52,385 nucleotides of DNA from Rozella allomycis CSF55 (GCA_000442015.1 KE560603.1:1-52385), one strand, 5' to 3'. Counted from the stretch's first letter, positions 852 through 44,140 are shown. Translations and numbers: made by a program. The notes: a model not told the origin generated them from the letters alone.

Positions 852-3800
852 TTAAGGCAACGACAATAAAAGTGCTGTCCCTCTCTTTATAAAGAAATCC
901 GCATCAAACTGCCCAACCTTCAAATCCACAGCAATAACAAACGACGGTCTATCTTCCGATCCTGTTCTTACAGGGTAATAATAAACAGGACACGTGTAAA
1001 CTCCTTTAACTGCCTTCTTCTTTGCCTCTACCGGCTTAAAATGGATAACGGGCATTGGCGTCACCAGCTCCATCGGTCTCGGCTCCTTTAAACAATTAGC
1101 CTTTTTATCCCAACTAGCATTACGAATAAACAATTTGTATACCTGGCGCCTTCCAAGTAAACTCCTTGCACGTAAATGCCGTCCTTGGGAGCCCCTTGGA
1201 TATGCGAGTCATCGTCGGTTTGTTGCACAGAGAATTCCCAGGTGAGCATATCGATGGGAATATTGTTCTTTCTAGCTGATTTCTGCAAGACAGCTGTTAG
1301 AAACCCACAGGGGAATGTGAACGCACCCAGCCAAAAGAATTTAGGCTCGTTTCTATATTAAACAAATTAATGATTGGTACCCTTTCGACCAATTTGAGAA
1401 AAAGTCTATCCTTTGAATCAAATCTCTAGTCCAAGCGCCCAAAGGTTTCAACGACGGATAAGTTTTCGACCAAGCTAATGGAACAACTCCATTTGAAATC
1501 GCCAAGTAGACTGCTTCAAGATCAGAGTTTATAACAATCAATCCTTTCAGACCCTTGCATAATTCATTCAGTGTTAATCTAATGATATCCAGCAGGTTGT
1601 TGTATCTTTTGATTTCCTGCAACAGAACCACATTGATCGGTTGAATAGCTTCCGCTTTGATTCTCTTGCATGTTTGGTCATAGTCGATATTTTCAGGAAT
1701 TTGTTTCAGCAGTTCGTTTGAAATGCTCAAGACTCGTTCTTCCCTCGATTGACCGACAAAAGTAGAGATTTGCGGCTGAAGAGAGATTAATGTTGTGAGG
1801 AGGTTGTTTGATTCTTTGATTAGGGAAGCGATATCAGCGTTTGAATGTTGGCCAACCACTTCAGGTCGATCGAAAGCAGGCCACGATGAGCAAAAGTCTT
1901 TAAACGAAGATAAATCATCGAAATCGGGAATGTAGTAATTTTGAATTGAAGAGAGTTTGAAATTTTGGGTTGAAATTGATTCTTCAGAAAAGTATGAATT
2001 GATGTAACTTTTCAGGACCCTTCTGTCCCATTCATCAGTAACTCTGCCGCCATAGTTGGCATCAGCAATTAAATAGCGGAGAGCATCCCATGGAACATTT
2101 TCATATTCATTTAACAGAGAACATAAAAGATTTTCTGAAACTTCAAAATCAGAGTCATTGAAATCGTATGGAACATTGTAACCCAAAGACAGAAACTTTC
2201 TTCTTTCTAGTAAAACTGAATGATAAAAGCACAAAGAAAACAACAATTTCCTGTAAATTTTTGGTTTTTGGCATTTTTTGAATTGTTGGTCGTCGAAAGA
2301 ATTAAATAGACGCAGAATATTTGATTTAATGCCTTTTGGTGGTTCAGTTGTTAGTTTAATTGACGCTTGCAGTATAGAAATTGGAAACGACGGATTTGGA
2401 GAGCTTGAAAGCCACAGCCTGAAATCTGGATGAATATTTTCTTGTGATGACATTTGCTCTATAATCTTTTCCAGTGTTGGCATCCAACTAATAGACAAAT
2501 GACAATTAGCTAAAAATATCCAGTTTCCAAGTCTGATTGCATCCTGAATCAACCTTAAAGCTTTAGGTGTTTGTCCTTGTCCCAGTGATAAATGGTAGAA
2601 ACGATCATTCATCTTCTTTTTGTTAGCCAACGATGAAATAATAAAAGTTGGATCAACCCCTGGCGATATAATAAACAGAATTGGCGTTTTGCAATTTGAA
2701 TCTAGCAATGTATCTTCAATATCAATCAAAGGTGGATCAATGTAATTTTGTCCCAGATTATTAACAATGAATTTCTGTGCACAAAGAATGAATCTATCTG
2801 GACGCAGAGATCTAATTATTAAAATTCGTTGTAGATCTGTCAATTTACTATCCCAATCCCCAGGCAATGGTAATTCTTCAGGTTCAGGGTTCATGAACCA
2901 ACTTTTCCATTCTCTTTCGTTTTGTTCCAGAGAAGAGATGAGAGAATTGAAGATTGTCATTTTATTTAATTCAGAAATATTATCCCAAGAGTTTTCATCA
3001 ATCCAATCAGAGCAAGGGTTTGGTAATTGAGTGTCTCTGTCAATTACATGGCCTCCTCTCAATAAGAAATCAAATTCATCTTTATTTAATTTATCTGCGT
3101 ATTCAAGTATTTTGCAAGTCATTTGAAAAGAGAATAGCAATTTATGTTTACCTACAATTTAATATGAATAAAATGTTTACCTATAATCAAATACAACTAA
3201 TATCATTACCGAATAAACTCTTGCATACATTCTTGTAGACAGAAAAAGTGTGATAATCATTTAAATTAGCAATCCTCTCATTCAAATCATCACTCTTNTA
3301 TGTTTACCTACAATTGAATATGAATAAAATGTTTACCTATAATTAAACATAACAATTATTTTTACCGAATAAACTCTTGCAGACATTCTTGTAGACAGAA
3401 AAGGTGTGATAATCATTTAAATTAGCAATCCTCTCATTCAAATCATCACTCTTTAAACTCTTCTGAATACTCTTTTCAAACAATGAAATATAAAAATCCA
3501 AAGAAAACTGATACATTGAATCCACAGAATTCAAATCATTCAACACAAAAAATAAAATAGAAGCTCTTTGTGCACATGATCTATAAGCTTCACGAGCGAT
3601 ATCAATTTTGATTTCTGTTTGTTCACTAACTTTTAATTGTCTGGCAGCCTCTTCAGCTGTATGTTTGGATGACTGTAGAGCATTAACCAACTTTTCATCA
3701 TCTAGAATTGATCCATGTGCGTTGGCTAGAAGATTTAGAATTTCGTCTTCTAGTTCTAATAATTTCTTTTTGGCGGCTGCAACGTTGATCACTAGAGAGT

Positions 3801-6800
3801 CTTTTTGTTCTTCCAACTCTGGTTTCTCTCTTCTCACCACGATACCTTTTAACATGAAATATGATTTAATTTACCTAGTAGTTGATCTTCTAATCCTTTT
3901 TCTTTGACAGAAAAGTTTATAACACAAGTTTTAGAACAAATTTCAGGTGAATATTTTGGATTTGATAGTCTAGTAGTTAGATACAGTTTAAACTTGGGAT
4001 CAAATTCAATCTCCTTGTCACCTTTTCTTAACAAAAAGTTTTAATTGTTACCTAGTTTAACCAATATACTTATGGTTACCTAGTTTAATGAATAGAGAAT
4101 CCCCCCGTTTGATTAAATCTTTATTCAAGATTGGATCAATGCTGGAATCAATATTCTCTCCAACATTCTGCATCAAGACTGGCTGACCTATAGGAATAGA
4201 AAATTCAAACTGTTTTAATAAATCAGATTGTTTGGCATCAATTATTTTTAGATTGTTTTCCAATTCTAATCTTTTAATCCATTTATTAGCTTGCAATTGT
4301 GGGTCAACAATCAATGGCCACCTCTTACCTTGATCATTTCAAATTTAATAGATTACCTATATCGATTTAAATCTCTTAGTTTACCTCGTTGAATGATAAT
4401 CGCATTGTCAGTTGAAAATGAATCAAACGGCAACCCTTTAATAATCCACTCTCTAATATCAGTAGAATTACCAAGCCAAGTAGAAAACTGAAAATCAACA
4501 GAAAATGGAATCTCCAACTGCTTCAACTGTGGAATCCAAATCTGATTAATCAACTTGTTTCTATAAATAGAATTAAATGGACCAAAATATGATAAAACAG
4601 CTGAACTTATCAAACAATCTCCAGGCAAACATTTCAATGACTCTTCATACTTTTTAATAGAAGATTCCCATCGCTCCTTTTCACCACTTAAACCAGACAC
4701 CAATTGTTCTGCTCTCTTTAATTTCAATTCAGTTTCTTCTGAATCTTTCTTCAGTTTCTCTTTCAACTCAACCTTTTCATCATATTGTAATTTCAACTCA
4801 TTAACTTTGAACTGAATTTCATTCAACTTGTCTTGCGCTTCTTTCAACGATAGTTGCTTCTTTTCTAAAGCCTCTTGCGCTATTCTCAATTTCTCTCTCT
4901 TGGGCGCTACTTGTCTAAAAATATTCCCATAAGCTTCCATTGCTCTAACCCACAAACAAAGCGATTTAGCTGCTAGTGAAACTCTGCCAATTATTTCTGG
5001 ATTAAAGTTTTCATCCAAGCAAATCTGTGAAATCTTTTTCAATATTTTATCTGAAATGTTGTCCTTGTCAAAGTTTATTAATGTTTTTATAAAATTTGGA
5101 TTTCCTAGCTGTCTTTTAGCTTCATCCCACGTTGGTTCACTCTTTTTCAGTATCATTACAGCTTCCATGACTTTCTCTACCAACGCTGGTGGTTTTCCAT
5201 ATGATTTAATTTCACCTTTTTTAACATTAAGTTTACTTGATTACCTATTTCACTATGATCTATTTTGATTACCTAAATCTTTTTTGTTTAATCCTTCTAA
5301 AGCTTTCAATGCAGAATTCAGTGCAGGCAACGCTTGATCTAAATCAGTTTGAGCGGCATTAGCCACCGCTCTCACTTGTTCTTCTTCAACTTTTAGTTTC
5401 TCACTCCTAGTAGCGACACTTCTCGCTTGGTCATCAGCTTCTCTCTTTTGTTGCACTATAATAACAAGATAATCTTCACATTGTTTTTGATACTGCGCAA
5501 CTTGCTTCTTGCTAGAATCTAATTCTATTGATATCTTTTCAACACTCTTTCTTGTATCATCCAATTTACTCAAACCGCCTCTCAGCTTGGTTGCTTGTTT
5601 TCCAATCTCTCTTCGCTTTTTATTCAACAATGTTTGATAAACTTTAACCAATTCTAAATAATTGATTGGTGTAACGTAATTCTTTCTCTTCAGTTCATTG
5701 TACATTATATTAGATTGATTAATAATTGAAGTATGAATATTAACAAACATTTGAGCAATACCTTTCAATATGGTTTAAGTGCAATGTTTACCTAATGATA
5801 TGTTTAAACTAATAAGTTTACCTAATAATAATAACTATAATTCTTTTACCTTTCTTTAGTTGATCTTGGTTGATTTCAATATTCTCTAAATATTTAGTTG
5901 AAACTTCCAAGAGAGCATCTTCAGGCCATTCACTAAACCAAATACTTGTAGTGCAATTAACAAGAGAAGGAAACATTCTCAATCTATTTCTAAAATTATC
6001 TCCAACTGGACTAGCACAAACAATCACATTCAAATTCTGCTTAACCTTGTTGATGAAATAATTATAAATGCCATCTAGATTATCAGAAACTTGCCCAATT
6101 GAATTTTGTATTTCAGCAACTTCTTCCATTGTAAACAGATTAGGAACATGCCCCAGACTCAAGATATTACTCAAATCTTCCATAAACAAATCATTTGTCA
6201 ATTGAGTATCAGTCAACAAGAACACTGTCTTTTTCTTTTCAATCCCACATTGCCTTTCAAACACTTTAAATTCTTTTACCTTTATTACAATTAACGTAAT
6301 CTAATTTACCTAGATTACATTAACCTCTTCAAATTACCTGAACAACTGTTTGATGTCTTCTTTGAATTCTTCAATTCTATAATTCCTCGTCACTTCAATT
6401 TGATAAACAGCAGCATTACAAACATACGCCGCCAATTTAGTCAAACTTCTTCTCCCACTCCCACCTAATCCAATCAACAATCCATTCCCCTGCGACAATG
6501 TAATAATTCTCGCTATCCTAACAACATGCTCAATAACATCTCTAAACAACACCAAATCCAACGCTACTGAACCAGGCTTTTGATCATGTTCATTCATCTT
6601 TTCTTCTAAATAATTCTACCCATTCAACCAACCAATTCTAATTACTTTAAGTTTGGAAACATCTTCAATCTCTTGATAAACAACCCTGCTCTCCAAACTA
6701 TTAAAGTCTCCAAACATTGGAATCCTCTTGTCTCCACACAACTGCTTTATAGTAGACCCAAAATAACTATTCAACTTTTCATCAACCAGCTTATAAAACC

Positions 6801-9800
6801 ATTCCCTATCATTAACATCAACAAGTCTATCATTAAACACTCTATACACTTCATGCACCCACAGCTTGGTAAACGATTCCTTTGAATCATAGAAATCCCT
6901 ATTAGCTCTCAACAACCCTTCCATCACATTAAATCTACAACCTTACCTTGGAACACTTTGGAAATGTCTCTCAAACTAAACAAATAATGGATTTTCGCTG
7001 GAGTCGGTAACAAATGCTGAGAAACAATATTGTAAATATCAACACTCGCACTCGTCATTATATCACCCAATGGTTTCACCTGCTCTTCAAAATCTTGCAA
7101 TTTCTGGTTAATAATCGTTGAATAGATTCTAAACAATGAAGACTCATTCGGACTCGTCATATTAATCACATTAAACCTAGACTGAAACCTCTCAGACAAT
7201 GTGTTTCTAGCACCCCCTGGTTTAGCCATCGCACTCAACAATACAATATCAGTTAAATACTTAATAGACTGTTTCTGCAGATCATAAACAAATCCATAAT
7301 CCATCCAATGCTTAATCAACTCCAACGGCTGCTGACTCCCAAAACTATCCTTCTTGGGCATATTCAAATCATCAATAAATATAGTCAATGTCTTTCCACC
7401 AGCCGGCACATAAATATTCTTTGTTCTCTTTTCCATCTTTGACTCGAATATACTCTGCACAGTCTCACTACTAGTTTGCGCCGACATGTTCACTACAAGA
7501 AAATTATTGATATTCATATTCTGTATAATCGACGTCTTGCCAGTCCCAGACTCTCCAACCAAAAGGACTGGATACTTGTTCTTGCACAAACTGTTTATCA
7601 AAAACTCATTTCTCTCGGTATCAATCGTCGGCACAAGTATTTTATTAAACGGAATACTCGTACTATACCGCCATCCACTCGTAATCTTGTCCTCCCAGTG
7701 ATTCCACTGCTTCTTTTCTACATTCACATAATACTCATAAACAGTGTCCTTGCTGGGAAACTGTCCTTCCAGCTCTCTCAAAAACATATCAAAACTGGTT
7801 CTACTCGTCTCTGTCAATGATCCACCAACACTCCATATCAAACTAAAGATAAACCACATTTCAAACAGTTTATAATCAATCTCGCTATAATCTATCCCAT
7901 TCTCTTTGGTAGAAAATGAATCAAACAAATTGCAAAATGATTTCACACAACTGGCTTCATCAACTTTAACTATTTCAGAACAGTTTCGTTTAAATTCTAT
8001 CGCTGGTTTAATATACTTTTCAACCAGTTTACACAACAACGCTGCCACACCAGAATTATCCTTTTCACTATTCAATTGATTATCCCTCTCAACTCTATCT
8101 CCCTCTCTCTCTCAACTCTATCTCCCTCTCTCTCAACTCTATCTCCCTCTCTCTCCCTCTCAACTCTTTCTCCCTCTCTCTCATCACTCTCCTGACTCTT
8201 AAAACTCTTCTTCCTCTCAATCCAACTATCAACAACCGGCTTCCATCCCAAATCCCCAACATCATGGTACACCATGCCCACCCGACTCACAGTCGCCGGC
8301 GACGCAGCCTCCAAATTATCAACCTCAAACACCAGCGACACCTGCTCAGGCAGCCCAATTCTATCTCCATTGCTCAGCGTCAGTATCTTGTTATCATCCA
8401 ACACCGAATTCATAGACTCTATCCACAACGTATCCACAGGTCCATCCAGCAAAACCCACTTTTGGTCCTTTTTATCATCCAAACACACAGATTTCAACAC
8501 ACTAGACAACACCCCGTCGCTCCATTCGTTCATCGAATTGTACTGGCCATACAAAGAGCCTAGCGACATGCTCTTGGGATTTATACTATACACTCTAACT
8601 GCATTATACTTTTCTGGATACTGTTTAGACAGTCTATTGTACGCGCCCTGCAGCACCTTCCACACAGTTGATTTGCCAGAATTTGAGTTTCCAATAACCA
8701 TAACACCATGTCTGATAATCTTTATTTCATGCAGCTGCAACACCTTGTTAATAATAGACTCTTCCAACTGCAGATTGCTAGCGGCCATTTCCTCCTTGAC
8801 AGCCTGGATCAGAACACTATTGTCTTGCTGGCTGATTTCAATGCCTGGAAACAGATCATACAAAATACCCATAAACAGTGGAACATCATCACTAGTTAAT
8901 TTGGGAATATTCATATCTTTCAACGAAAGAAACAAGACTATATCATCGGGTGCATTCATATCCATTCTCTTGCGCATTCCAGCTGTTCTCAAAGCAGACG
9001 TTAAACTTCTCAACCCATAATCATAGTGTGACTGTTTAGACAACTGCTGCGTAGCCAAGCGGTACAGTGAATCAACCTTTTTACTCAATACTTTGGTATT
9101 AGCAAATCCTTCAGCAAACAAGACAATTTCGGCAATGTACGCAGAATCAGGCAACATCATAGCAACTGGCCTGAACAAACTCTTCACATTATCAGGCAAT
9201 TCACTTCTTCCAGCGTAAGATGGATTCATTGTAATAAACACAGCTGCTGAATGCTTTAGTTTTATTTCTCTATTCTCAAACACAAATGTTTTAGCTCTTC
9301 TAGAAATAGCAGTTAAAATACAAGATATTTGCAATGCTACAACTGATAAAACTTCAACATCGACTCTATTGAATTCATCAAAACAGCTCCATGCGCCAGT
9401 TTGTGCTAGACCAGCGAATATTCTTCCCATTGATTTGTAGTCGAGACTTTCTGAACAATTTATTACGAGAACAAAATAGCCTAGTGCTTTTCCAAGATCT
9501 TTGACTGATTCTGTTTTACCAGTGCCTGCTTTTCCTTGTGGACTTCCACCTCTATTTAAATTCAAAGCGGTTGTTAAAGTCATGAAGCATCTATCAGTCA
9601 ACGGTGTTATAACCAGCCTTCCACTATTACCTTTATAACAGTATAAAATAGTTGATTACCTAAGTTAATCTTAATTGTTTCTCAATTACCTAGATATTCA
9701 TAGCCATATTGGAATGTTGCATTGATTTGCTTGATAACACAATTATCAACTTCTTTATCCCAATAGAATCTCAATTGACTTGACCATTCAAAAGCATTAA

Positions 9801-12800
9801 CTCCACTGCAATCATTTTTGTACATTCTATCAATAACATCTCTAGAATGAACTTCAGTTGTTATTAAAGCAACAAGCTTTTTCCTCTCAACTTTATTCAA
9901 TGGAGATTTAACCAACTCTGCCAATTTCTTCAAATTGCCTTTATTAAAAGTATTAAAAGAGATTACCTAGTTGTTTTCTTTTTAGTTCTTTCAATGCCCC
10001 CTTTTCACCCTTTTCAACATCTAACAAGGCTCTTGTGCAGTCACTAGTCCAGTTGATTTGGCCAGCTGTTATTAATAGTTGACCAGGCCAATCTTTTAAC
10101 CATTTATCTCTCTTCACTTTTTTGAATGCATTTAAAGTTCCCAGTAGTTGTTTCCGTAGAGTTTCTTTCATTTCATTTTCAATCTGACCCAACCAAACTT
10201 CCACCGCACCTTTTGCATGGATACTAAATAAATGTTACCTATATTTTAACTCTTAAAACCCATTTACCTTCTATTAATACATTCTCATTGAATGGAACAT
10301 ACTCACCATCTTCAGAATACATTCCAATCGCTTCAATAACCCTTCTCATAGAATTACCACCAACATTAACCTGCAATCTATACAGAGAATCAAAACATTT
10401 CTTCAAATGCGGCTGAATAGCATTCGGATCTTTATTCTGCCCCAAAATAATCAACAAATCAGAATCAGACACAAAAGAAAATCTAGGAAACGCTTGTCTC
10501 TTTGTCTCCAAAAACATTGAAAGTGATTTCTGAATCTTCTCCAATTGAACATTCATATTCTTTAATTTATTATTCAAATCTTTTTCATGAGTCGCTCTTA
10601 AAACATTCTTGTCTTTAATCATCTTTTCCATGATTTCTTTCCAGTTTTGATTAATTTCATCAAACACTGATGATTCTTTTGGCAATTGTTTTCTTATATC
10701 TTCACTAGAAATGAAAATGTTTTCTAAATACATCCACTGCTTTTGCACTTGAAGAAGCAATTCTATTATTTCCATTATATTCGATAATGTTCTCTCCCAA
10801 TGATCAACTTGCGATTGGAATGGTTTGAAATATTTAGACACTTTAAATCCACTTAAAGTCAATTGATTGTCTTCTAGTAATTCACTTATTGAATCTGAAC
10901 TTGATAGTTTGAAATACCCCTTTTCATTCTTGAATGGCACAATCTCCAAATCTAATTCACTCCACGCCTTTTTAATATTCTCTATTCCTTGCTCAATAAA
11001 CAATTCTTTAGATGCTGCTTCAGACATTACATTGATTTGATCTCCATACTGATCCAAATTAATCTCTACAATCTTTTCAAGCGTAAAATCTTCTTGTATA
11101 TTCCTTCCAGTTATCTCTCTCAATTTGTCCCAATGGCGTTGTCTCAATGAATTATTCTTCAAATCTTTCAAAATGGGTATCACTCGCTTCATCTGATTCA
11201 ATCTCTCTTTAATCGACTGCCAAATATCCCACTCTTTCAAATTCAATTTATTATTTCTCTTTTGATATTCATTTATTATATTCTCAATCGTCTCTATTTT
11301 CAATTCATGAAATTTCTGAATCTTCCATTCCTTCCATTTCTCATTAAATTCTTTATTCAATTGCCACACATTCATCAGATTATCCAAACTAGTCGCTATA
11401 ATCTCTATATCCTTGGATCCCTGCTGCTCAATCTTAAACACACTCAGTCCCTTTTGCAAATTAATCTCCAAATTAGCCATCTGCTTCACTTTGCTTTTAT
11501 ACTCTTCAATCATCTTAAATGCTTCTTCAATCTCCACCTTCACACTAAAAGGTCCATTGTTCATCAAATCTTCTTTCAATACATTAACATTCTTATTAAA
11601 CTCATCAATAGAATTCATCAATTCAGTTTTAAACTTTAATTTATACTCTTTCAACGTCTTGTCTGATTCATTCATTGTTATTTGAAACACCTGCCACGTT
11701 GTAGGCAACAACTCCAACTGATCCTTTTCTTCTTGCTTTATATTCACATCCTATTCAATATCAATTTGATTCTACTTACGTATTTCTCTAATATCTGGTA
11801 CATTTCTTGGATCGGCTGAAACTGTGATTCAATACTCGCACAATCCATCTTCAACTGAGCAAGCAGATTCAAACTCTCAGACAACTCATCCAAAGTAGTT
11901 GGAATCCTCTTCAACTTTTCTGTATGGTTAACAAACAATTGATGCAGATTCTTCAACTCGGAACTCGCATTGTTATTCAGCAACGTTGTCAGTTTATTCT
12001 GCCACTGATTACAATGCGCTACCAGCGTATGCTTCAATGGAGAACAATCCAATCTAACAAAATTAACACTCGTCAATGTTTCTTCCTTTTGTGTATTGTT
12101 TGCTACTTCAGTGTATCTGTTAATATCAGACTCAAATGTTGACATGGCTGGCTTCAACTTTGCATATCTTCTAATAAACGCATCCTTATTAATCTCCCAT
12201 ATCTACTCAAATATTTAAACTATGCTTACTTCCTTGTATGAATCCCAATTGTGGATGTATTCATTACATTTAACAACATTGTTACTCAATCCATGCTGTA
12301 TATTAGCCAAATGTTTCAACATCTCATCCTCCTTGCCAATAACCTCATGAATCGCTTCTCTCTTGTTATCAACCAGTCTGGGTATCACAGAAATACTAGA
12401 CACAAACTCTCTGCTCAGTCTAGTCACTATTTCTTCCAACTTTTGCAAACTGGGATTAAATTCAACTTTTTGTTTCAATACAACTTCAACTTTAAACAAC
12501 GCCTGTATCTCTGACGGCGCTTCATGGTTCCTACTCTCTCCATTCAATGCATTAGACAACTCAATCAACGATCGTCTCACTAAATGTCTCAACGCTTCCT
12601 CCACCCACAAATCGATTCTCGTCACATAATTCATCCACTGCTCATACACCTCTCTTCCATCACTCTTAAACACTTCAAAACTACTCTCAACAATCTGCTT
12701 GATATTATTATACTCTTTCAACAACTTGCTCTTTATTCCATTCAAATGCATATTAATATACTCTTCAAATTCACTCAACTCGTACACCTTCTTATTCTCA

Positions 12801-15800
12801 ACAGACCACATATTCAACATTGACATATTCTCACAGCTCTTTTGTATTTTATTACTAGACTCCATAAACTCTGCTACTATCTTTTGCACATCATGCGCAT
12901 GCTTCCTACACTCTTTCACAAAATGATCCGTTATGCCTTTAGACGACCACGTTAGATTACTCAACCCTGGATTAATCTTTCTATCCAGAAATCTTATCCT
13001 CTCTTTAAACAACATATTCTCCTCGGGCGTCAATGTATCCAACACTGAATTATAGTCTCTAACAACAAGCAACACTGAATCCCTCAAGATTCGCAACTCT
13101 TCCTTTTTAGTATAAATCTCTTGCACTTGGAATGGTATATCACACTTCAGCTTTTGCCAATAGTAAATCTCATTCATCATTCTAATCAAATCCTTATCAA
13201 ACTTCATGTCCAGTACATTAACCCCCTTTCTCTCCATCAACGGAGTATCCAACTTTTCCATCACTTGCACAGGCAAACTCGATATCCAATCACTATGCGT
13301 CTTGGTCACATAATCTTCAACACTCGAATTAAACGCTTCATACAATGCCTTGGCCTCTTCTGCTATACTCAACTTTGGCATATAGTCCATATAATTGTAT
13401 ATCTTCATACTAGGACTCACCCTCTTAACTATAGATCTGGCCCATAGTGCTGACCCTGCAAAGTCTGGATGGAATCTCATAATCTCTGGCGCCTTTTTCT
13501 TGGTCTCAAATTCATTCTTTGCATTAGAAATCTCCATGTACAACTTTTGAAACACATCGCTAGTCTTCTTCTCAACAGTTCTCTTGATCGCATCCCTCTT
13601 TGCCAGTCTACTAAACGTTACAAGCAAATACGTTGATGCTTCCACACTTGGACTCGTTTCAAAGGCTGAAACTATAACATTCTGCATCATCACTTCCAAA
13701 TCTTTAACGCCAAGTTTAAATTCAGAATATTCATCATGCCATTTAGTTGCCTTTACATCCAGTATATGCTTCTTATTCTCCCACAACAAATTCAACTGGC
13801 GCTCAAATGCCCTTTCAATGTCTTCTAAACTCTTGGCTGTCTCGGGCCCTTTAGTGCCTCCAAACTTTGGTATCGGTAGCTTTTCTCCATTGACTTGCTT
13901 TCTTGCAAACTGCATTTGACCTGTTATTATTTAAATCTTCTCGAATTACCTTCACATACTTCCAACAAGTCTCTACATCTCTGTACAAATGCATCAATTT
14001 GGGCAAATATACTACTCTCATCAAAATCCCACGGCTTATTGGTATTTTTTGTTACCAGCATTGCATTCCTCTTGTAAATATTCTTCCATGACTCTCCGCA
14101 AAATATACTATCATTCAACACTGCAACAGCTGAATGCACATTCCCCTTAAAAATAGACTCCAATGATATTCTTGATGTGCATCTGTTAATAATCTCATTG
14201 CTTATCTTTCTCAATAACCCTGTCAATCTCTCCCGTGTATTATAAAACCTTGAATTCAACCAAATCAATCTCACAAAAAACAATACTTTTTGGATTATCC
14301 CACCAACATTCTTTGCTTCTGCATTCGCCAACTCTTTACATGGCTCAATCAACGTTGACAAAAACTTTAAATTATCCTGTGCCTGCAACAACCCATCCTG
14401 AATCAAATTAGACAATCTCATAAACTGCTCCAAATATGATGATTTACAACTTTTCATCACTTCCAATATCTTTTGCACTTCAGTTCTATTCAACTGCACA
14501 TTAATTCCACTCAAATCAGCACACCGAGATTTCCAAAATTTTATTTCCTCCAGTGGGCCACTCGTCTCTGATGCCTCCGTATTATGCTGATTATTAACAA
14601 CCTCCTTGATCTGGCGCGTCCAATGCAACAACAGCGATTCCAACCTCTGGACAACATCTTTATCCTTTGAAACTAACTCAATCTCTTCAATCTTCTCCTG
14701 CGGTACATACAACACAGTATGCCCTTCCACTTGAAATGTGGTATCAGTCAAATACGCCATAAATTTATGCAACTGACCGCTAAAATCCTTACGAACACTT
14801 TCAGGCCACCCTTCATTATCCAGAAAAATTGGAACAAATATGCCACTCATCAGTCTCAATAAACTATGCAATGCATCACCCGTAACTGACCCAAATTGAA
14901 CACGATCAGAAAACTCTTCAACAGTCACAGGCTTTTCATCATTGTCTCTCACAAAAAACATCAAATGATCAATTGACGACTTGGGAACTGTAGATCCAAC
15001 ACACAACAACATCTCATCATTAACTTGATGCACATAAGCCACGATACGGTGCGGTCCCCTGCCCATAATAAAATCTGTAACATCAGACTCGTGACTCTCC
15101 TTCCACATAAACGGCTTGTAATCCGTTATAATCAACAAGGACTTGAAATGCTCAATCACAGGCTTCACATCAAACACCTTTGGTTTTTCAGGAATTTGCA
15201 CTCGAGACTTTGAACTTGCAGATTTTAGCTTCTCAGGTTCAGCCAACATGTTCCCACTCGAGTCACTCTTTAAATCATTCTTGGATTCTTTCGGCACTAA
15301 ACTACCTGCACTTGTGCCATTTGCTCCCGACAATGATTCTTCGACATTGTTCTCCACTTTAGCAGTTAATGAACTTCCATTGGAAATAACACTCTTCGAA
15401 TCATTCACATTAGTTTTTGAGCCTAGTTTCTTTTGTCTAGGATTCGTTCCAACACTCGGCTGAGATGGTGGTCTTGGCTGCAATGAATCACGAGAAACAG
15501 ACTTGTTGGACAAATTCTGGGATTGGGATCTTGAACCTTTAAGATTCTTATTGGATCCCATGGACTTTTCGTTCACACTTGGTCGCTTTCCACCGCTGGA
15601 GGCTGCAACCGTATTGGCCTCTGCTACAGGTTCTACAGCCTAATTTTAGGATATAATTGAAAGAATTACATCATTTTTAATGTCTTCCTTGGTCTCATGT
15701 TGGTCATTAGTGTTGCCCTTGGTAGCAATCGACGCCTTACGTACAGACTCCTGTCTTTGGTCGACAATTGACGTTTGCTCATTATTTTCACTCACAATAC

Positions 15801-15852
15801 CTAGCTGCTCTGGCTGGGGAGCAGGAATAGGGTCCTGATTAGTATCACTCAT
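852..15852 (-). CDS. DNAH2: Axonemal dynein heavy chain, DNAH2-like (inner arm I1/f beta), 18 introns
   Basis: Exon ORFs join into tail (DHC_N1/N2), AAA1 (GKAGTGKT, CFDEFNR), AAA2 (GNSNSGKS), AAA3 (GESGTGKT), AAA4 (GLGGSGRRS), stalk/MTBD, AAA5/6 and the C-terminal YTCPVYYYP...KRGTALLL. Single introns: 1114-1142, 1353-1380, 3846-3874, 6616-6645, 6918-6946, 9939-9966, 11751-11779, 12203-12229, 13921-13949, 15640-15669. Stacked introns: 3152-3209, 4022-4079, 4329-4384, 5216-5272, 5762-5849, 6254-6337, 9631-9689, 10210-10267. One apparent frameshift near 8100 and an N-joined duplication at 3143-3453. Confidence 0.93.
3143..3453. repeat. 155-bp imperfect direct duplication flanking an N (probably two haplotypes joined by the assembler)
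   Basis: 3143-3297 and 3299-3453 are near-identical and separated by n at 3298. The two exonic differences are synonymous. Confidence 0.85.
8084..8182. repeat. GA/CT-rich tandem repeat (~21-nt unit) encoding (E/R/G/D/V)n inside dynein
   Basis: Repeated ctcaactctatctccctctct units, translated as EREGDRVEREGDRVER. Confidence 0.85.
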
Positions 15853-15857
15853 GAAAT

Positions 15858-15881
15858 TGTAAACACGAAATTTCGCGCCAA
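15858..15881. promoter_or_regulatory. Forkhead (GTAAACA) and E2F (TTTCGCGCCAAA) motifs in the 66-bp dynein upstream region
   Basis: Both motifs are read directly in the short gap before the dynein ATG. Confidence 0.4.
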
Positions 15882-15918
15882 AATATTAATTAAAAAATAA
15901 TATGGTATTTCCAGAAGT

Positions 15919-18839
15919 TTATTCATGCTCATTCTCAAGCTTCTCTTGTAATTTTGTTATGTATTCGTTGAAATCGATATAGTCGATAAAACTGTCTGGT
16001 CTCTGGTGAATGGAGAACCTCTTGAGTAATACTTGGGCTTCTTCTTGAGAAATTTTTAGGTTGTTGTTGCAAAGCACAGACACAAACTGGTTTTGTGTTA
16101 TAGTGCCTTTTAATAAATTAATTTAATGTTACCATTGTTAATTCTATCGTAATCTTCAAAAACAAAGTAGAGATCCATCCTTCTTTGGCTCAACTGTGTG
16201 GCTAGCCTCTTGCTACAAGAATCTAATATCGCGTTTTCTTTATCATCTAGTTCGTATGGAGGATCTCGCAAGTTTGCGACGAAAGCTGGAGGCTCTGCCA
16301 ATGGGTTTTGCTCCAAATTATCAATCGTAAATACTGACTCTAAATCATTGCAGAATTTCACATAGTCCACAAATCCTCCCTCTTGAGTGTATGGCAAAGT
16401 CAATATATCTAGCTTTTCTTGCGTATTAGGGTAAGCATGATGAAAAACTCTTAGCGCCCTTTGAAAATCATGGCGATGAATTTTCCCGTGTCTCAATGGA
16501 TCGAAATCTTTCATAATTTCACGAAAACTAAATCTTTCAGTCTTTACACGCGACTTTAATTTGTTCATGACATAATCAAACGTGATTCTATTGTTTCTAT
16601 TCTCGGATCGTCTCTTCTCGGGATACATGGGACTTTTCAAATAAGGTATCTGCACCCTCTTTTGATCTCTATCGTCATCTTTTTTTATAAAGCTTACGTG
16701 TTTATAGTGGAAAGAAAAGACAGATAATCAAATCCATCGCAATCTTCGTGAACTTTTCTAAGTGCGTTAAACTCTTCCTCGCTTAAAATAATCTTCCCGT
16801 ACATTAGGCTCTGTCTGGCTTGCGACACACTAACATGTCCATTATTGGATTTGTCAAAGTCTCTGAAAAAAGGCTTTAATATAACTGGTCTTCGACGCAA
16901 TGTCTCATGAATTTTGGCCATGGCCGAATTTACATGAGCCTTTTCCTCTTCACTTAACGTAAATAATGCTTGCTGATGAAATTCGTGTATATTTGCGGCC
17001 ACATTATCGGAAAACACACTGTCCATTTCTTGCGCAAATTCTTTCCATTTGCACGATTCTGGATGACTTTTGTCTTTATATTTCTCGACCAGAGCTTTGG
17101 CTTCATTGCTGTTCAATGGAAAACCCATTCTTCCAATACCTCGAATAAATTCATCATGAAGAATAGAGTTATGACGAAGCCTATCGCAGTCAACAAAAAA
17201 CTCTTGAACACGAATTCTTTGTTTATAGACGTAATGTTTAAGTTGGTTTAGTAGTTTATCTAAGTCAATTTCGGTAGTATCACTGTGAGTTTTTTCTGGC
17301 TGTTTAGGTATTGAAGGTAATTGATCGTGATTTCCTTCTATTAAACGAAGAAATTCATGATAGGTCACGTCACCGCAATGATCTTCATATTTTTTGAAAA
17401 GAATGAAGAGATCATCCTCGGCTATTTCCAAGGATAGCATTGACAAAATTCTACTTAAGTGTGATTTTGTGATCCTTCCGGTATGTCCTTGACCCTTTTA
17501 GGAGTAAGCACATTTTTTTACCTTGTCAAAATCGGCGAAAAATGATCCAACAGAAATTCTTCTCTTTTCAATTTGCTTTCTTAAATCTTTTATTATTTCG
17601 TCAAATCTTTTTTCTTCTTCTGGTGTTAAGCTATCATGAATATGTAGCTGTTGCAAAAATTCCCGCGAAGGAATCTCTGGCTCGGATAGTGGGGAATATT
17701 CCAAATGAGCTTTTGTAAAAACTGGATACAAGTAGGATGAATATATTTACTAGTATCGATGTTGTCACAAAACTTTCGATACATTACTCTTCCGTTTTTA
17801 TTGTACGCTTGACAGAGAACATTAACTTCTTCGGGGTGTAATTCCAAACCAGCCATATGCAGGGCACTAGCAAACTTATGTGCGAAAGTAAAATCACGCT
17901 TACTTGATGCGTAGTAATAAGATTTGAATTTAGTTTGTCGTAATCTCTGCAGAATTCAAGAATACGGATTCGTCTTTTGTACACAACTGTATGAATTGTG
18001 TTTGCGGGTCTTACTCTTTCTTATTTTATCTTCCACGTATACTGAATCGATTTGTTCGGGTAATTCATCTTCTTCGAGTAAAATATTTTCTGTTCCAATT
18101 GGAACATGTGCGTTTTTATGATGTTGACCTTTGGAATGCACAGCACGATATTCATGGGTCATTCTTTCATGAGAATTGTTCATATCTAAGTCTAGACGAA
18201 AATAATTCACTTGGCCTCTTTTCTCGTCAAGGTATAGTTTCAACAATTCCTGCGATTCTTTTTCCGTGAATAAATTTTGAGGGAGACTCCTAAGAAACTA
18301 TTTTACACGTATCCTGAAATTACCTGCCCTATAGTAACGTAACCATTGTGGTGGCGATCAAAATCTCGGAACCAAGATTTTAGATTAGCTCCGTGATGCT
18401 TAATCCATTGATGAATTTTTCCAAATGTTGGTTGCATTTTGACAGCTGCCTCTTTTGAAAGACCCGAGTATCCAGTTTCTGTGCCATGTTGTTCACTTGG
18501 GACACTTAAATCCAAGTTTTCGATAGATTCTATGAACCGGGAATAAATAATCTTACGCCCATCAAAATCTCTTGCGAATTTTTGGTAGTTGATCAACCCA
18601 GTCTTGGGACTGCAATATCTTTTCATGATAGAGTTAACCTCCTCGTTTGATAATCCTGGTCCTTTTTCCATAACAGCAGCTAGACCTCTATTGAATTGGG
18701 ATGCGGAAATGCAGCCTGAATTCAACTTGTCGAAATCCTTGAAAAAGTCTGCTGGTCTTCGTCTTAAAAGCTTAACATGTGATTTAATCTTTAACTCTGC
18801 GTCTAGAGAAATGTTTAAAGGAGTAATTGAATGCAACAT
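15919..18839 (-). CDS. Multi-EF-hand protein, EFCAB6-like (probably ciliary)
   Basis: Repeated F-x-D-F-D-x-x-x-x-G-x-I/V EF-hand pairs (FFKDFDKLNSGCI, WFRDFDRHHNGYV, FFRDFDKSNNGHV, FEDYDRINNGTI) across exons joined by 26-30 nt introns. Stop TAA at 15919-15921. Confidence 0.75.
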
Positions 18840-18910: not shown

Positions 18911-20621
18911 ATGGATCCAGCACGGTTCATGGTGGATGTGAGAAATGTATCAAACGAAGATTTAGATCAACTAAAATTAATATATGAAAAATATTGCTCA
19001 AAAGATGGGACTATGAGTTTAAGCAGTTTCATCAAAATGCTCAATGAAGGCAGTCCTATCACAGAGGAGAAGAAAGAATTGAGCGAAAATCTCTATGATG
19101 CAGCAAAGAAATGGAATCCAGTGGCTAATTTTAAAAACTTTGTTGAACTAGAAAGTGAATTACGACACCCATTCTCAATCTACTTAATGGCCTTTAGATT
19201 TCTAGATAATGATAACGATAATTACTTGTCTTGCAAAGACATGACGGATTTGATGCTGGTTGAATACCGTAATATTTTGATGGGGCAATTGGCCTACAGT
19301 ACCAGATACAGTTATGATGCCTTTTTGATTCATTTAAATGATTTATTTAAAAAGAGATTGTTTCTCAAGTACTCTGAGATAGATGATAGGGGTTTAAATT
19401 ATGTTTCTAAAGAGAATGCGTCAAAATTTCTGGACGTGACTTATCCAAACTTGCCAAAGGACGAACTGGAACAGTATCTTAAAGGAGTAGAGACGTTTAA
19501 CTTGGATGAATTCGTTTCAATGAATTTGAAAATACTTGCAAAACATCCAAATATTACATTAAAAGACAAAAATAACGTAAAATCAACGATCCTGAAGAGC
19601 GCCCACAGCTTCTTTCTTGGATCTATTGCTGGTGCGATTGGAGCTACCATCGTTTACCCTATTGATTTGGTGAAAACAAGAATGCAAAATCAAAGATCAA
19701 TTAAAGGAGCTGAAGTTTTATATAGAAATAGTCTAGATTGTTTTTTCAAAGTTGTCAAGAATGAAGGACCACTCGGTCTTTATCGGGGACTTGGTCCACA
19801 ATTAGTTGGCGTGGCTCCAGAAAAAGCAATCAAGTTAACTATGAATGATTTTATGAGGTCAATATTAAAGAAAGATGACGGTTCAATATCATTGCTAGCT
19901 GAGATCATAAGCGGTGGGACAGCGGGTGCTAGCCAAGTTATATTTACCAATCCTTTAGAGATAGTTAAAATAAGGTTGCAAGTCCAGGGTGAATTAGCCA
20001 AATCTCAAGGCATTTCTAGACAGGGCGCTATAAAGATTGTCCGTCAACTTGGTTTTAGAGGGTTATACAAAGGTGCTAGCGCATGCTTACTACGAGACAT
20101 TCCATTCTCAGCTATTTATTTCCCTGCTTATTCAAACATAAAAAGGAAGATTTTTAAGGAGGGAAACGAAGGGAAAAAGCTATCACCAATTGAGCTACTT
20201 GTTTCTGGGGCACTAGCTGGTATATTTTTTACAAAAATGATATAGGAATGCCTGCTGCTTATCTCGCTACTCCAGCTGATGTAATCAAAACAAGAATACA
20301 GGTTGAGGCAAGAAAAGGACAACAAGTCTACACAGGAATAAGAGACGCTATACAAAAGATTTTAAATGAAGAAGGTAATACTTATAGTTATCTTAAACAG
20401 GATTAAAGGCGTTTTTTAAAGGAGGACCTGCAAGAGTGTTGAGATCTTCACCCCAATTTGGATTCACTTTGCTCAGTTATGAAATCCTTCAAAGATTATT
20501 ACCGATTCATAAAGAGCATAAAACTATTGTATCAGAACAACAATTAAATTCACCTTTTGCTTATCAAAGAGCTATTCAAACAATGTATGATGCGCATTAC
20601 TATTTGTTAAATAAATCATGA
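18911..20621 (+). CDS. AGC1: Mitochondrial aspartate/glutamate carrier (Agc1/aralar-citrin family) with N-terminal EF-hand-like region
   Basis: Carrier motifs [25 protein letters not shown] and [11 protein letters not shown], plus [10 protein letters not shown] and [10 protein letters not shown]. Two short introns. Confidence 0.9.
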
Positions 20622-26696: not shown

Positions 26697-26768
26697 GGGC
26701 TCCGCCGAGGATTGAACTCGGGACCTCTCACACCCAAAGCGAGAATCATACCACTAGACCACGAAGCC
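26697..26768 (-). tRNA. tRNA-Pro(UGG), intronless
   Basis: GGCTTCG/CGGAGCC acceptor stem, A box TGGTCTAGTGG, anticodon loop TT-TGG-GT, T loop GTTCAATC, followed by a T5 Pol III terminator. Confidence 0.95.
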
Positions 26769-28549: not shown

Positions 28550-28746
28550 AGCGATCTTACTCGCAAGGATCATGTATATAGTACATAATCCCGTCTTAGT
28601 TTCCCAACTTAGACGCACACTCAACCCAGGATGACGAGGCCTAACCTCATTTGTACTAACGTGAGGCGTAAGACTTGTTCTTTCGAAGATCCATTGTCTG
28701 ACCTACTATAGGTTAGACTACGTGCAAATGGGGTAGTCTGACTGGT
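28550..28746 (+). ncRNA. U3 snoRNA
   Basis: Box A'/A (gatcttactc..aggatcatgtatatagt), hinge resembling fungal U3, box C' (ggatgac), box B (aacgtgagg), box C-like (cgaagat), internal hairpins, box D CTGA at 28738-28741 and a terminal stem ccag/ctgg. Confidence 0.85.
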
Positions 28747-43707: not shown

Positions 43708-44140
43708 GAAGTTGGGGCATCTTATCACTGTCCGATATATTTCCAATACCAGAGAATGGAATGCTTTTAACTAATTCATCAAAGCTCAAACTTGAGTTAA
43801 ATTTTGAAACATATTCTATAAATATAACAAGAAAACAAGAAAATTATTAACGTTACATGAATGTAAGAGCTTGCCGTTCATAATTTATGCAATAGAGTAG
43901 ATANGGAAGTTGGGGCATCTTATCACTGTCCGATTTATTTCCAATAACAGAGAATGGGATGCTTTTAACTAATTCATCAAGGCTCACAGTTGAGTACTGT
44001 TTCATTCAAGGGTGTTAAATTGATACATATTCTATAAATATAGCAAGAAAACAAGAAAATTATTAACGTGTACATGAATGTAAGAGCTTGCCGTTCATAA
44101 TTTATGCAATAGTCTCTATCAGTTTACAATAGAGTAGATA
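43708..44140. repeat. ~200-bp imperfect direct duplication flanking an N (probably haplotype duplication)
   Basis: 43708-43903 and 43906-44140 are near-identical apart from SNPs and two ~20-nt indels, with n at 43904. Confidence 0.8.

Follow-up and report, generated by a model that had tools for sequence, protein, structure and literature searches.

Tiny introns stacked head to tail in a dynein gene of Rozella allomycis

In a 52,385-nt stretch of the Rozella allomycis CSF55 genome (GCA_000442015.1 KE560603.1:1-52385; hereafter the window), the minus strand carries an axonemal dynein heavy-chain gene that is interrupted at eight sites by two or three complete introns of 26-30 nt that follow one another with no exon in between. 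From the genomic sequence we infer that these tiny introns were probably duplicated in tandem at AGGT microhomologies and that they are now probably spliced unit by unit. Rozella allomycis is a flagellated parasite belonging to the sister lineage of the microsporidia.

The eight stacks (S1-S8, Table 1) have total lengths of 56-88 nt and comprise 18 units, all of which start with GTAA, end with AG, and lack a G at position -3. At each of the ten internal joints, the 3' splice site of one unit is followed without a gap by the 5' splice site of the next (AG|GTAA). These sites had first been listed in a preliminary description of the window, and their coordinates, unit lengths, and joints were all reproduced here; a twin copy of S8 at 3308-3365 and the assembly duplication that contains it had been missed. 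Stacks make up 8 of the 17 intron sites of the dynein gene (8 of 18 if a tenth single intron is included), compared to none of the 33 intron sites elsewhere in the window (p = 4.5e-5).

Such an arrangement is not expected by chance. When both strands were scanned for abutting units (GTAA start, 26-32 nt, AG end), 12 adjacencies were found on the minus strand, all within the dynein gene, and none on the plus strand; two of the 12 are due to a 156-bp assembly duplication described below. Shuffling the dynein region 500 times at the dinucleotide level gave 0.066 adjacencies on average and two at most.

Reading frame after removal of the stacks

The host gene uses the standard genetic code, with exons of 395-601 codons free of TAA, TAG, and TGA; a ciliate origin and an altered genetic code were considered and are ruled out by these exons. 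Homologues carry the names dynein axonemal heavy chain 2 or inner-arm I1-beta heavy chain. An NCBI protein of Rozella allomycis (P0241, 1315 residues) is 100% identical to our dynein model over 1159 residues with no gaps and maps down to position 855.

Removal of all units leaves an open frame at every site. The resulting model aligned without gaps at all nine junctions compared with L001, an intronless orthologue from a metagenome. In five such orthologues (L001-L005), the counterpart of the exon between S5 and S6 is unbroken and extends further at either end. P0241 is also gap-free against the model across S6, S7, and S8, and its alignment requires removal of exactly 56 nt at S6, 58 nt at S7, and 29 nt at the single intron 3846-3874. 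As judged by homology only, i.e., by the alignment with L001 and the predicted protein P0241, the mature message contains no sequence from the ratchet points. We also determined the consequences of retaining one or more units. In 33 of the 34 combinations a stop codon followed within 33 codons, whereas retention of the middle 30-nt unit of S4 (5762-5849) left the frame open and would insert ten residues that are missing in the orthologue. The proposition of the preliminary description that the protein is restored only on removal of all units therefore applies to every combination but this one.

A metagenome scan for relatives of the gene yielded 15 loci, of which five (L001-L005) are orthologues from other organisms that lack introns and ten (L006-L015) contain long introns; no close relative with tiny introns was present among the 15. 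Where stack positions were checked against the animal locus L010 (nine junctions), none was clearly shared, S4 being off by two codons.

The stacks in independent sequence data

Over positions 3460-16000, the window was compared with contigs from DNA runs of different studies (X1, X2, and X6). The best-covering run may itself be the source of the window, which leaves X2 and X6 as the independent runs. Contigs crossed S1 (X1, X2, and X6), S2 and S3 (X6), and S4 and S7 (X2) without gaps, and no joint in any of them dropped a whole stack or a unit, as expected because the runs are DNA. A second allele of S2, present in X1 and X2, has 2 nt fewer in one unit and 1 nt fewer in the other, so that units of 28+28 nt result. 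Six pieces of 31-112 nt from the metatranscriptome run X12 matched conserved parts of the exons only, with 90-95% likeness; they leave the stacks uncovered and are uninformative on expression. Inside S4, one X1 contig skips 39 nt (5765-5803). In addition, an X6 contig falls short of the window by 27 nt at some point within 5260-5897, a range that includes S4. These differences may reflect haplotypes differing in unit number.

The region around S8 (3141-3455) contains a 156-bp tandem duplication with copies that are 92-94% identical and an N at their joint (3298), and S8 is present in both copies. P0241 skips 214 nt in this region, which equals 58 + 156 nt, and thus lacks the duplicated piece. 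Probably, the assembler has set two alleles in tandem here. The two copies show ten differences (seven in unit 1, one in unit 2, and two in the exon), with no indels and with none of the differences in a splice signal.

This segment, duplicated falsely or allelically and marked by an N, is what speaks for regarding the stacks in general as falsely duplicated introns created by the assembly. Such an explanation is nevertheless extremely improbable, since the units of one stack differ from each other, contigs of the three DNA runs span five stacks without a gap, and the public protein model requires exactly the stack lengths to be removed at S6 and S7. The preliminary description had named assembly duplication as an outcome that would overturn it; the contigs speak against this for S1, S2, S3, S4, and S7, whereas S8 does lie in a duplicated segment.

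Single introns and unit signals

Candidate introns were collected by joining open reading frames (ORFs); the ORF on either side had to span at least 40 codons, and read-through was blocked. Candidates with a GTAA donor numbered 6, 9, 9, 5, and 5 at lengths from 26 to 30 nt, compared to 0-4 at each other length between 18 and 45 nt. Antisense-of-exon rows, alternative acceptors, and non-GTA donors were dropped from the final set of single introns. A search by ORF joining for longer, non-stacked introns was too noisy for use. All 42 introns of the hand-picked set have lengths of 26-32 nt, with GTAA as donor in 35, GTAT in six, and GTAC in one case; the upper bound had previously been set too low, at 31 nt. 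Within the window and for this hand-picked set, the introns thus show the narrow, unimodal length distribution near the minimum that characterizes ultra-short-intron genomes. Mapping of P0241 revealed a tenth single intron in the dynein gene, which brings the total in the window to about 43.

Of the 18 stack units, 13 have a branch-like TTAA motif located 5-18 nt from the 3' end, where shuffled interiors would give 5.5; for the 42 single introns, the figures are 20 observed and 12.6 expected. The branch motifs YTRAY (five occurrences, 4.4 expected) and TRAY (six occurrences, 7.9 expected) were not enriched in the 18 stack units. Among the exons following a stack, three start with GTAA (3151, 4328, and 9630) and one with GTAT, and all four have no AG at 24-34 nt, in agreement with what had been noted before for the three GTAA exons. 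The three exons starting with GTG all have an AG at 26-30 nt.

Units 1 and 2 of S3 (6280-6337) are predicted to form a 16-bp hairpin that is centred on the joint and carries the internal GUAAA in its loop, with a minimum free energy of -15.4 kcal/mol (z = -4.33); none of 200 shuffles folded as well. The folding of the other seven stacks was no better than that of shuffles. A search for non-coding RNA within the stacks gave no Rfam match in 3000-10400 at E-values up to 1.

Exon context and similarity of neighbouring units

Stacks and single introns differ markedly in the exon sequences that border them. The downstream exon starts with GT at seven of the eight stacks but at only 4 of the 42 single introns (p = 2.4e-5), and the upstream exon ends with AG at seven of the eight stacks compared to 15 of the 42 single introns. 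Both features coincide in 6/8 stacks and 2/42 single introns. The direct repeats across the outer boundaries are longer for the stacks (3-8 nt, mean 5.25) than for the single introns of the dynein gene (mean 2.1) or those elsewhere (mean 1.5; Mann-Whitney p = 2.4e-5). All nine AG|GT junctions of the dynein gene are in phase 1 and split a GGT glycine codon. At three of the six AG|GT sites that could be compared, the residue of L001 is a different one (S at S4, Q at S5, and E at S8).

The units of a stack also tend to resemble each other. The similarity score was on average 0.9 for adjacent units and -1.37 for non-adjacent units (permutation p = 0.009); the effect is driven by S3, S4, S5, S6, S7, and S8, whereas S1 and S2 score -7, which is below background. 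Taken individually, S3, S4, S6, and S8 have similar units, in contrast to S1 and S2. No family of near-identical units was visible among the non-adjacent units within the window. Taken together, the direct repeats with their AG|GT context and the resemblance between neighbours suggest an exact tandem duplication of the intron between AGGT(A) repeats. A tiny intron embedded in the order exon ...AG|GTAA...AG|GT... exon could be copied exactly, either by slippage or by unequal exchange, and the duplicate would do no harm, as every copy is a complete intron. The AG|GT context, the flanking direct repeats, the similarity of neighbouring units, and the intact joints in diverged stacks are new observations.

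Removal and origin of the units

If the units are spliced individually, the first 5' splice site, branch motif, and AG to emerge would define unit 1 as an intron. Its excision would bring the AG of the exon next to the GTAA of the following unit across a zero-length exon, and every unit would be removed in a splicing reaction of its own; either order would be workable, also one in which unit 2 is spliced first. Once unit 1 is recognised as an intron, the following unit would have to remain a working intron, and the internal AG|GTAA joints would be kept. The intact joints in stacks whose units have diverged therefore point to single-unit splicing that is frequent enough to be subject to selection. 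Unit-wise splicing is partly supported in that it fits both the preservation of all ten joints even though some neighbours are dissimilar and the presence of TTAA in most units. Allelic variation gives hints of constraint on the individual unit: the indels in S2 leave two units of 28 nt, and the eight differences located in the units of the S8 copies hit no signal. The absence of an AG at 24-34 nt in the four post-stack exons that begin with a usable donor (GTAA or GTAT) is a further hint.

Alternatively, each stack might be excised in a single step as an ordinary intron of 56-88 nt, the internal joints being leftovers of duplication that play no role in splicing. We consider this unlikely, but several observations favour it and weigh against unit-wise splicing. 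It would yield an identical mRNA, and the colinearity with L001 and P0241 agrees with it just as well; introns of 50-90 nt are usual for splicing in most fungi. The hairpin of S3 could draw the outer splice sites closer and thereby shorten the effective length. Furthermore, length is not the sole cue: the stretch of exon right after intron 3846-3874 (3819-3845) opens with GTAT and reaches a CAG at 27 nt but encodes conserved residues (GIVVRREKPE), which means that length plus GT and AG do not suffice to define an intron. With this counter-example, the earlier idea of a spliceosome that simply measures about 29 nt is too simple. The data limit the case for unit-wise splicing as well. P0241 is a gene prediction rather than a transcript, the runs spanning the stacks are DNA contigs, the single introns were picked by eye (33 outside and 9 inside the dynein gene) so that all dependent counts carry this choice, and the analysis covers one stacked gene in one 52-kb window. 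Against removal in one step, on the other hand, all ten joints are intact although the units of S1 and S2 have lost all detectable similarity, which argues for selection on the joints. None of the 42-43 other introns is longer than 32 nt, 13 of 18 units possess a TTAA motif of their own, and the first branch site and AG to emerge would normally be used.

The origin of the stacks can be debated in the same way. Instead of being copied from a neighbour, the units might have been inserted singly by reverse splicing or as introner-like elements at AG|GT proto-splice sites; the intron boundary is itself such a site, and insertions would pile up there. This also predicts the AG|GT context seen at seven of eight stacks, and it agrees with the fact that the two units of S1 are unlike each other, as are those of S2. 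Moreover, no checked junction (nine compared) coincides with an intron of L010, and the positions may thus be lineage-specific gains. Single insertion is nonetheless quite improbable, because, on average, a unit resembles its neighbour more than it does the other units, and because no near-identical unit family is visible in the window. As to tandem duplication, it has to be considered that the neighbour similarity on which it draws is modest and absent in S1 and S2, and that the comparison of the units with their flanking exons gave mean scores of 7.9 for cognate and 7.2 for non-cognate pairs, with 4 of 18 units scoring at least 10 (6.7% expected); both weigh against it. Derivation of the units from flanking exon sequence, which was considered separately, is weak according to the same comparison.

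Going beyond the dynein gene, it is possible, though somewhat short of probable, that splicing in Rozella is limited to introns of about 26-32 nt, i.e., to a quantised length with one reaction per unit, and that AGGT-flanked introns duplicate and delete exactly, like minisatellites. Arrays with zero-length exons would then represent an undescribed route of intron gain, and unit numbers would be polymorphic between strains. If the units are indeed spliced one by one, the stacks would be the smallest known case of recursive splicing and a natural experiment on a tiny-intron spliceosome with upper and lower length limits. The repeat context together with the neighbour similarity offers a concrete and testable mechanism of intron multiplication by exact tandem duplication, which bears on the source of new spliceosomal introns and, Rozella being sister to the microsporidia, on intron miniaturisation toward reduced genomes. 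On the practical side, gene finders using a fixed short-intron model will mis-call stacked sites.

Other features of the window

The coordinates of the dynein gene, its stacks, and its single introns are listed in Table 1. Within the gene, a GA-rich repeat at 8075-8190 (unit of about 21-27 nt) encodes ...EREGDRVERE..., and the dynein frame shifts by one there; the X6 contig lacks 35 nt of the window at this place, so that the frame would be restored, and the contigs of both X1 and X2 are broken there. The repeat represents either an assembly error or a length polymorphism. The GC skew of the plus strand is strongly negative (-0.26 to -0.43) over 4000-16000 and coincides with the dynein gene, whose coding strand is G-rich and C-poor.

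An adjoining ORF (18911-20245) matches 'mitochondrial carrier [Rozella allomycis CSF55]' with 99% identity. This match rules out a dicyemid or myxozoan origin, and together with P0241 it assigns the window to Rozella allomycis or a very close strain. Further genes of the window encode tubulin, ODAD1, a kinase, iPGM, and a Na/H exchanger. A tRNA gene (26697-26768, minus strand) is located between protein-coding genes, and a gene for U3 small nucleolar RNA (28551-28746, plus strand; 60 bits, E = 1e-10) also sits among protein-coding genes. A lone N at 43904 is the second single N of the assembly.

Table 1. Dynein heavy-chain gene, intron stacks (S1-S8), and single introns of this gene. Positions are those of the window; unit lengths are given in nt.
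Feature	Position	Strand	Remarks
Axonemal dynein heavy-chain gene (DNAH2 / inner-arm I1-beta type)	855-15885	-	Based on long standard-code ORFs, homologues, and P0241; 5' end approximate
Stack S1	10210-10267	-	29+29 (10267-10239, 10238-10210); phase 1, exon context AG|GT; unbroken in X1, X2, and X6 contigs
Stack S2	9631-9689	-	30+29 (9689-9660, 9659-9631); gap-free in X6 contig 8233-11197
Stack S3	6254-6337	-	28+30+26; gap-free in X6 contig 5868-6935
Stack S4	5762-5849	-	28+30+30; gap-free in X2 contig 5302-6048
Stack S5	5216-5272	-	28+29; junction colinear with L001-L005
Stack S6	4329-4384	-	28+28; exactly 56 nt skipped by P0241
Stack S7	4022-4079	-	28+30; gap-free in X2 contig 3460-4331; exactly 58 nt skipped by P0241
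Stack S8	3152-3209	-	29+29; inside 156-bp duplicated segment
Twin copy of S8	3308-3365	-	29+29; inside 156-bp duplicated segment
Single intron	15640-15669	-	30 nt
Single intron	13921-13949	-	29 nt; AG|GT context
Single intron	12203-12229	-	27 nt
Single intron	11751-11779	-	29 nt
Single intron	9939-9966	-	28 nt; one allele 1 nt shorter
Single intron	6918-6946	-	29 nt
Single intron	6616-6645	-	30 nt
Single intron	3846-3874	-	29 nt; AG|GT context; exactly 29 nt removed in P0241 mapping
Single intron	1353-1380	-	28 nt; GTAC donor
Single intron	1114-1142	-	29 nt; GTAT donor; boundaries from gap in P0241 mapping

Comparison with known systems

The related known kinds of arrangement are recursive splice sites with zero-length exons and intron gain by tandem duplication. 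The head-to-tail arrangement of tiny introns itself seems to be undescribed: as the preliminary description had supposed, no account of abutting tiny spliceosomal introns was found in the literature searched, the Rozella genome paper and supplementary intron tables being outside its scope.

According to the model of Rogers, introns are reportedly gained by tandem genomic duplication across AGGT, in which a first intron is created from a duplicated piece of exon. The stacks share with this model the AGGT direct repeats at both ends and the principle that the message regains its original form once the additional copy is spliced out. They differ from it in that what is repeated seems to be an intron that was already present, which gives arrays, and in the weak similarity of the units to the flanking exons.

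With a very narrow length range below about 32 nt and reduced signals, the Rozella introns resemble the ultra-short introns of Paramecium, Nyctotherus, Stentor, microsporidia, myxobolid myxozoans, and Dicyema; the accessible parts of PMC13644364 and PMC5014332 deal with introns of this kind. As far as the available excerpts show, fungal intron medians range from 29 to 197 bp (PMC8042348), and two putative introns of about 30 nt were reported for Rozella S23 (PMC6349667). Tandem arrays distinguish the dynein gene from these systems; they are unmentioned in the available portions of the texts on them, supplementary tables aside, and the Results of the study on the shortest animal introns (PMC13644364), as far as accessible, do not mention them either.

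Stwintrons of ascomycetes are removed by consecutive standard splicing reactions and probably arose in part from intron duplication, as described in the accessible sections of PMC8469720, PMC7138796, and PMC9024468. Like these, the stacks are complex intervening sequences with a possible duplication origin that would be removed by consecutive standard reactions. In a stwintron, a donor, branch, or acceptor element of the outer intron is split by the inner one, whereas the signals of the Rozella units are all uninterrupted and whole units simply adjoin. Every unit has a GTAA and an AG to itself, and when one unit is removed its neighbour is already complete.

The stacks also resemble recursive splicing as found in Drosophila, vertebrates, and Schizosaccharomyces pombe. 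Zero-length-exon recursive splicing is documented for Drosophila (bioRxiv 10.1101/006163), and two cases of zero-nucleotide-exon recursive splicing, one in a 336-nt intron, are presented for S. pombe (bioRxiv 10.1101/226894), both according to the parts of these reports at hand. Here as there, an AG directly abuts a 5' splice site (GTAA in the stacks) within the intervening sequence, and removal of the upstream segment gives a new 5' splice site. For the known cases, stepwise removal is backed by RNA evidence, whereas the Rozella stacks are known from DNA. The known cases concern very long introns (336 nt in S. pombe, kilobases in animals) with one or few ratchet points; the Rozella segments, in contrast, are minimal introns of 26-30 nt that form arrays of 56-88 nt, eight of them in a single gene.

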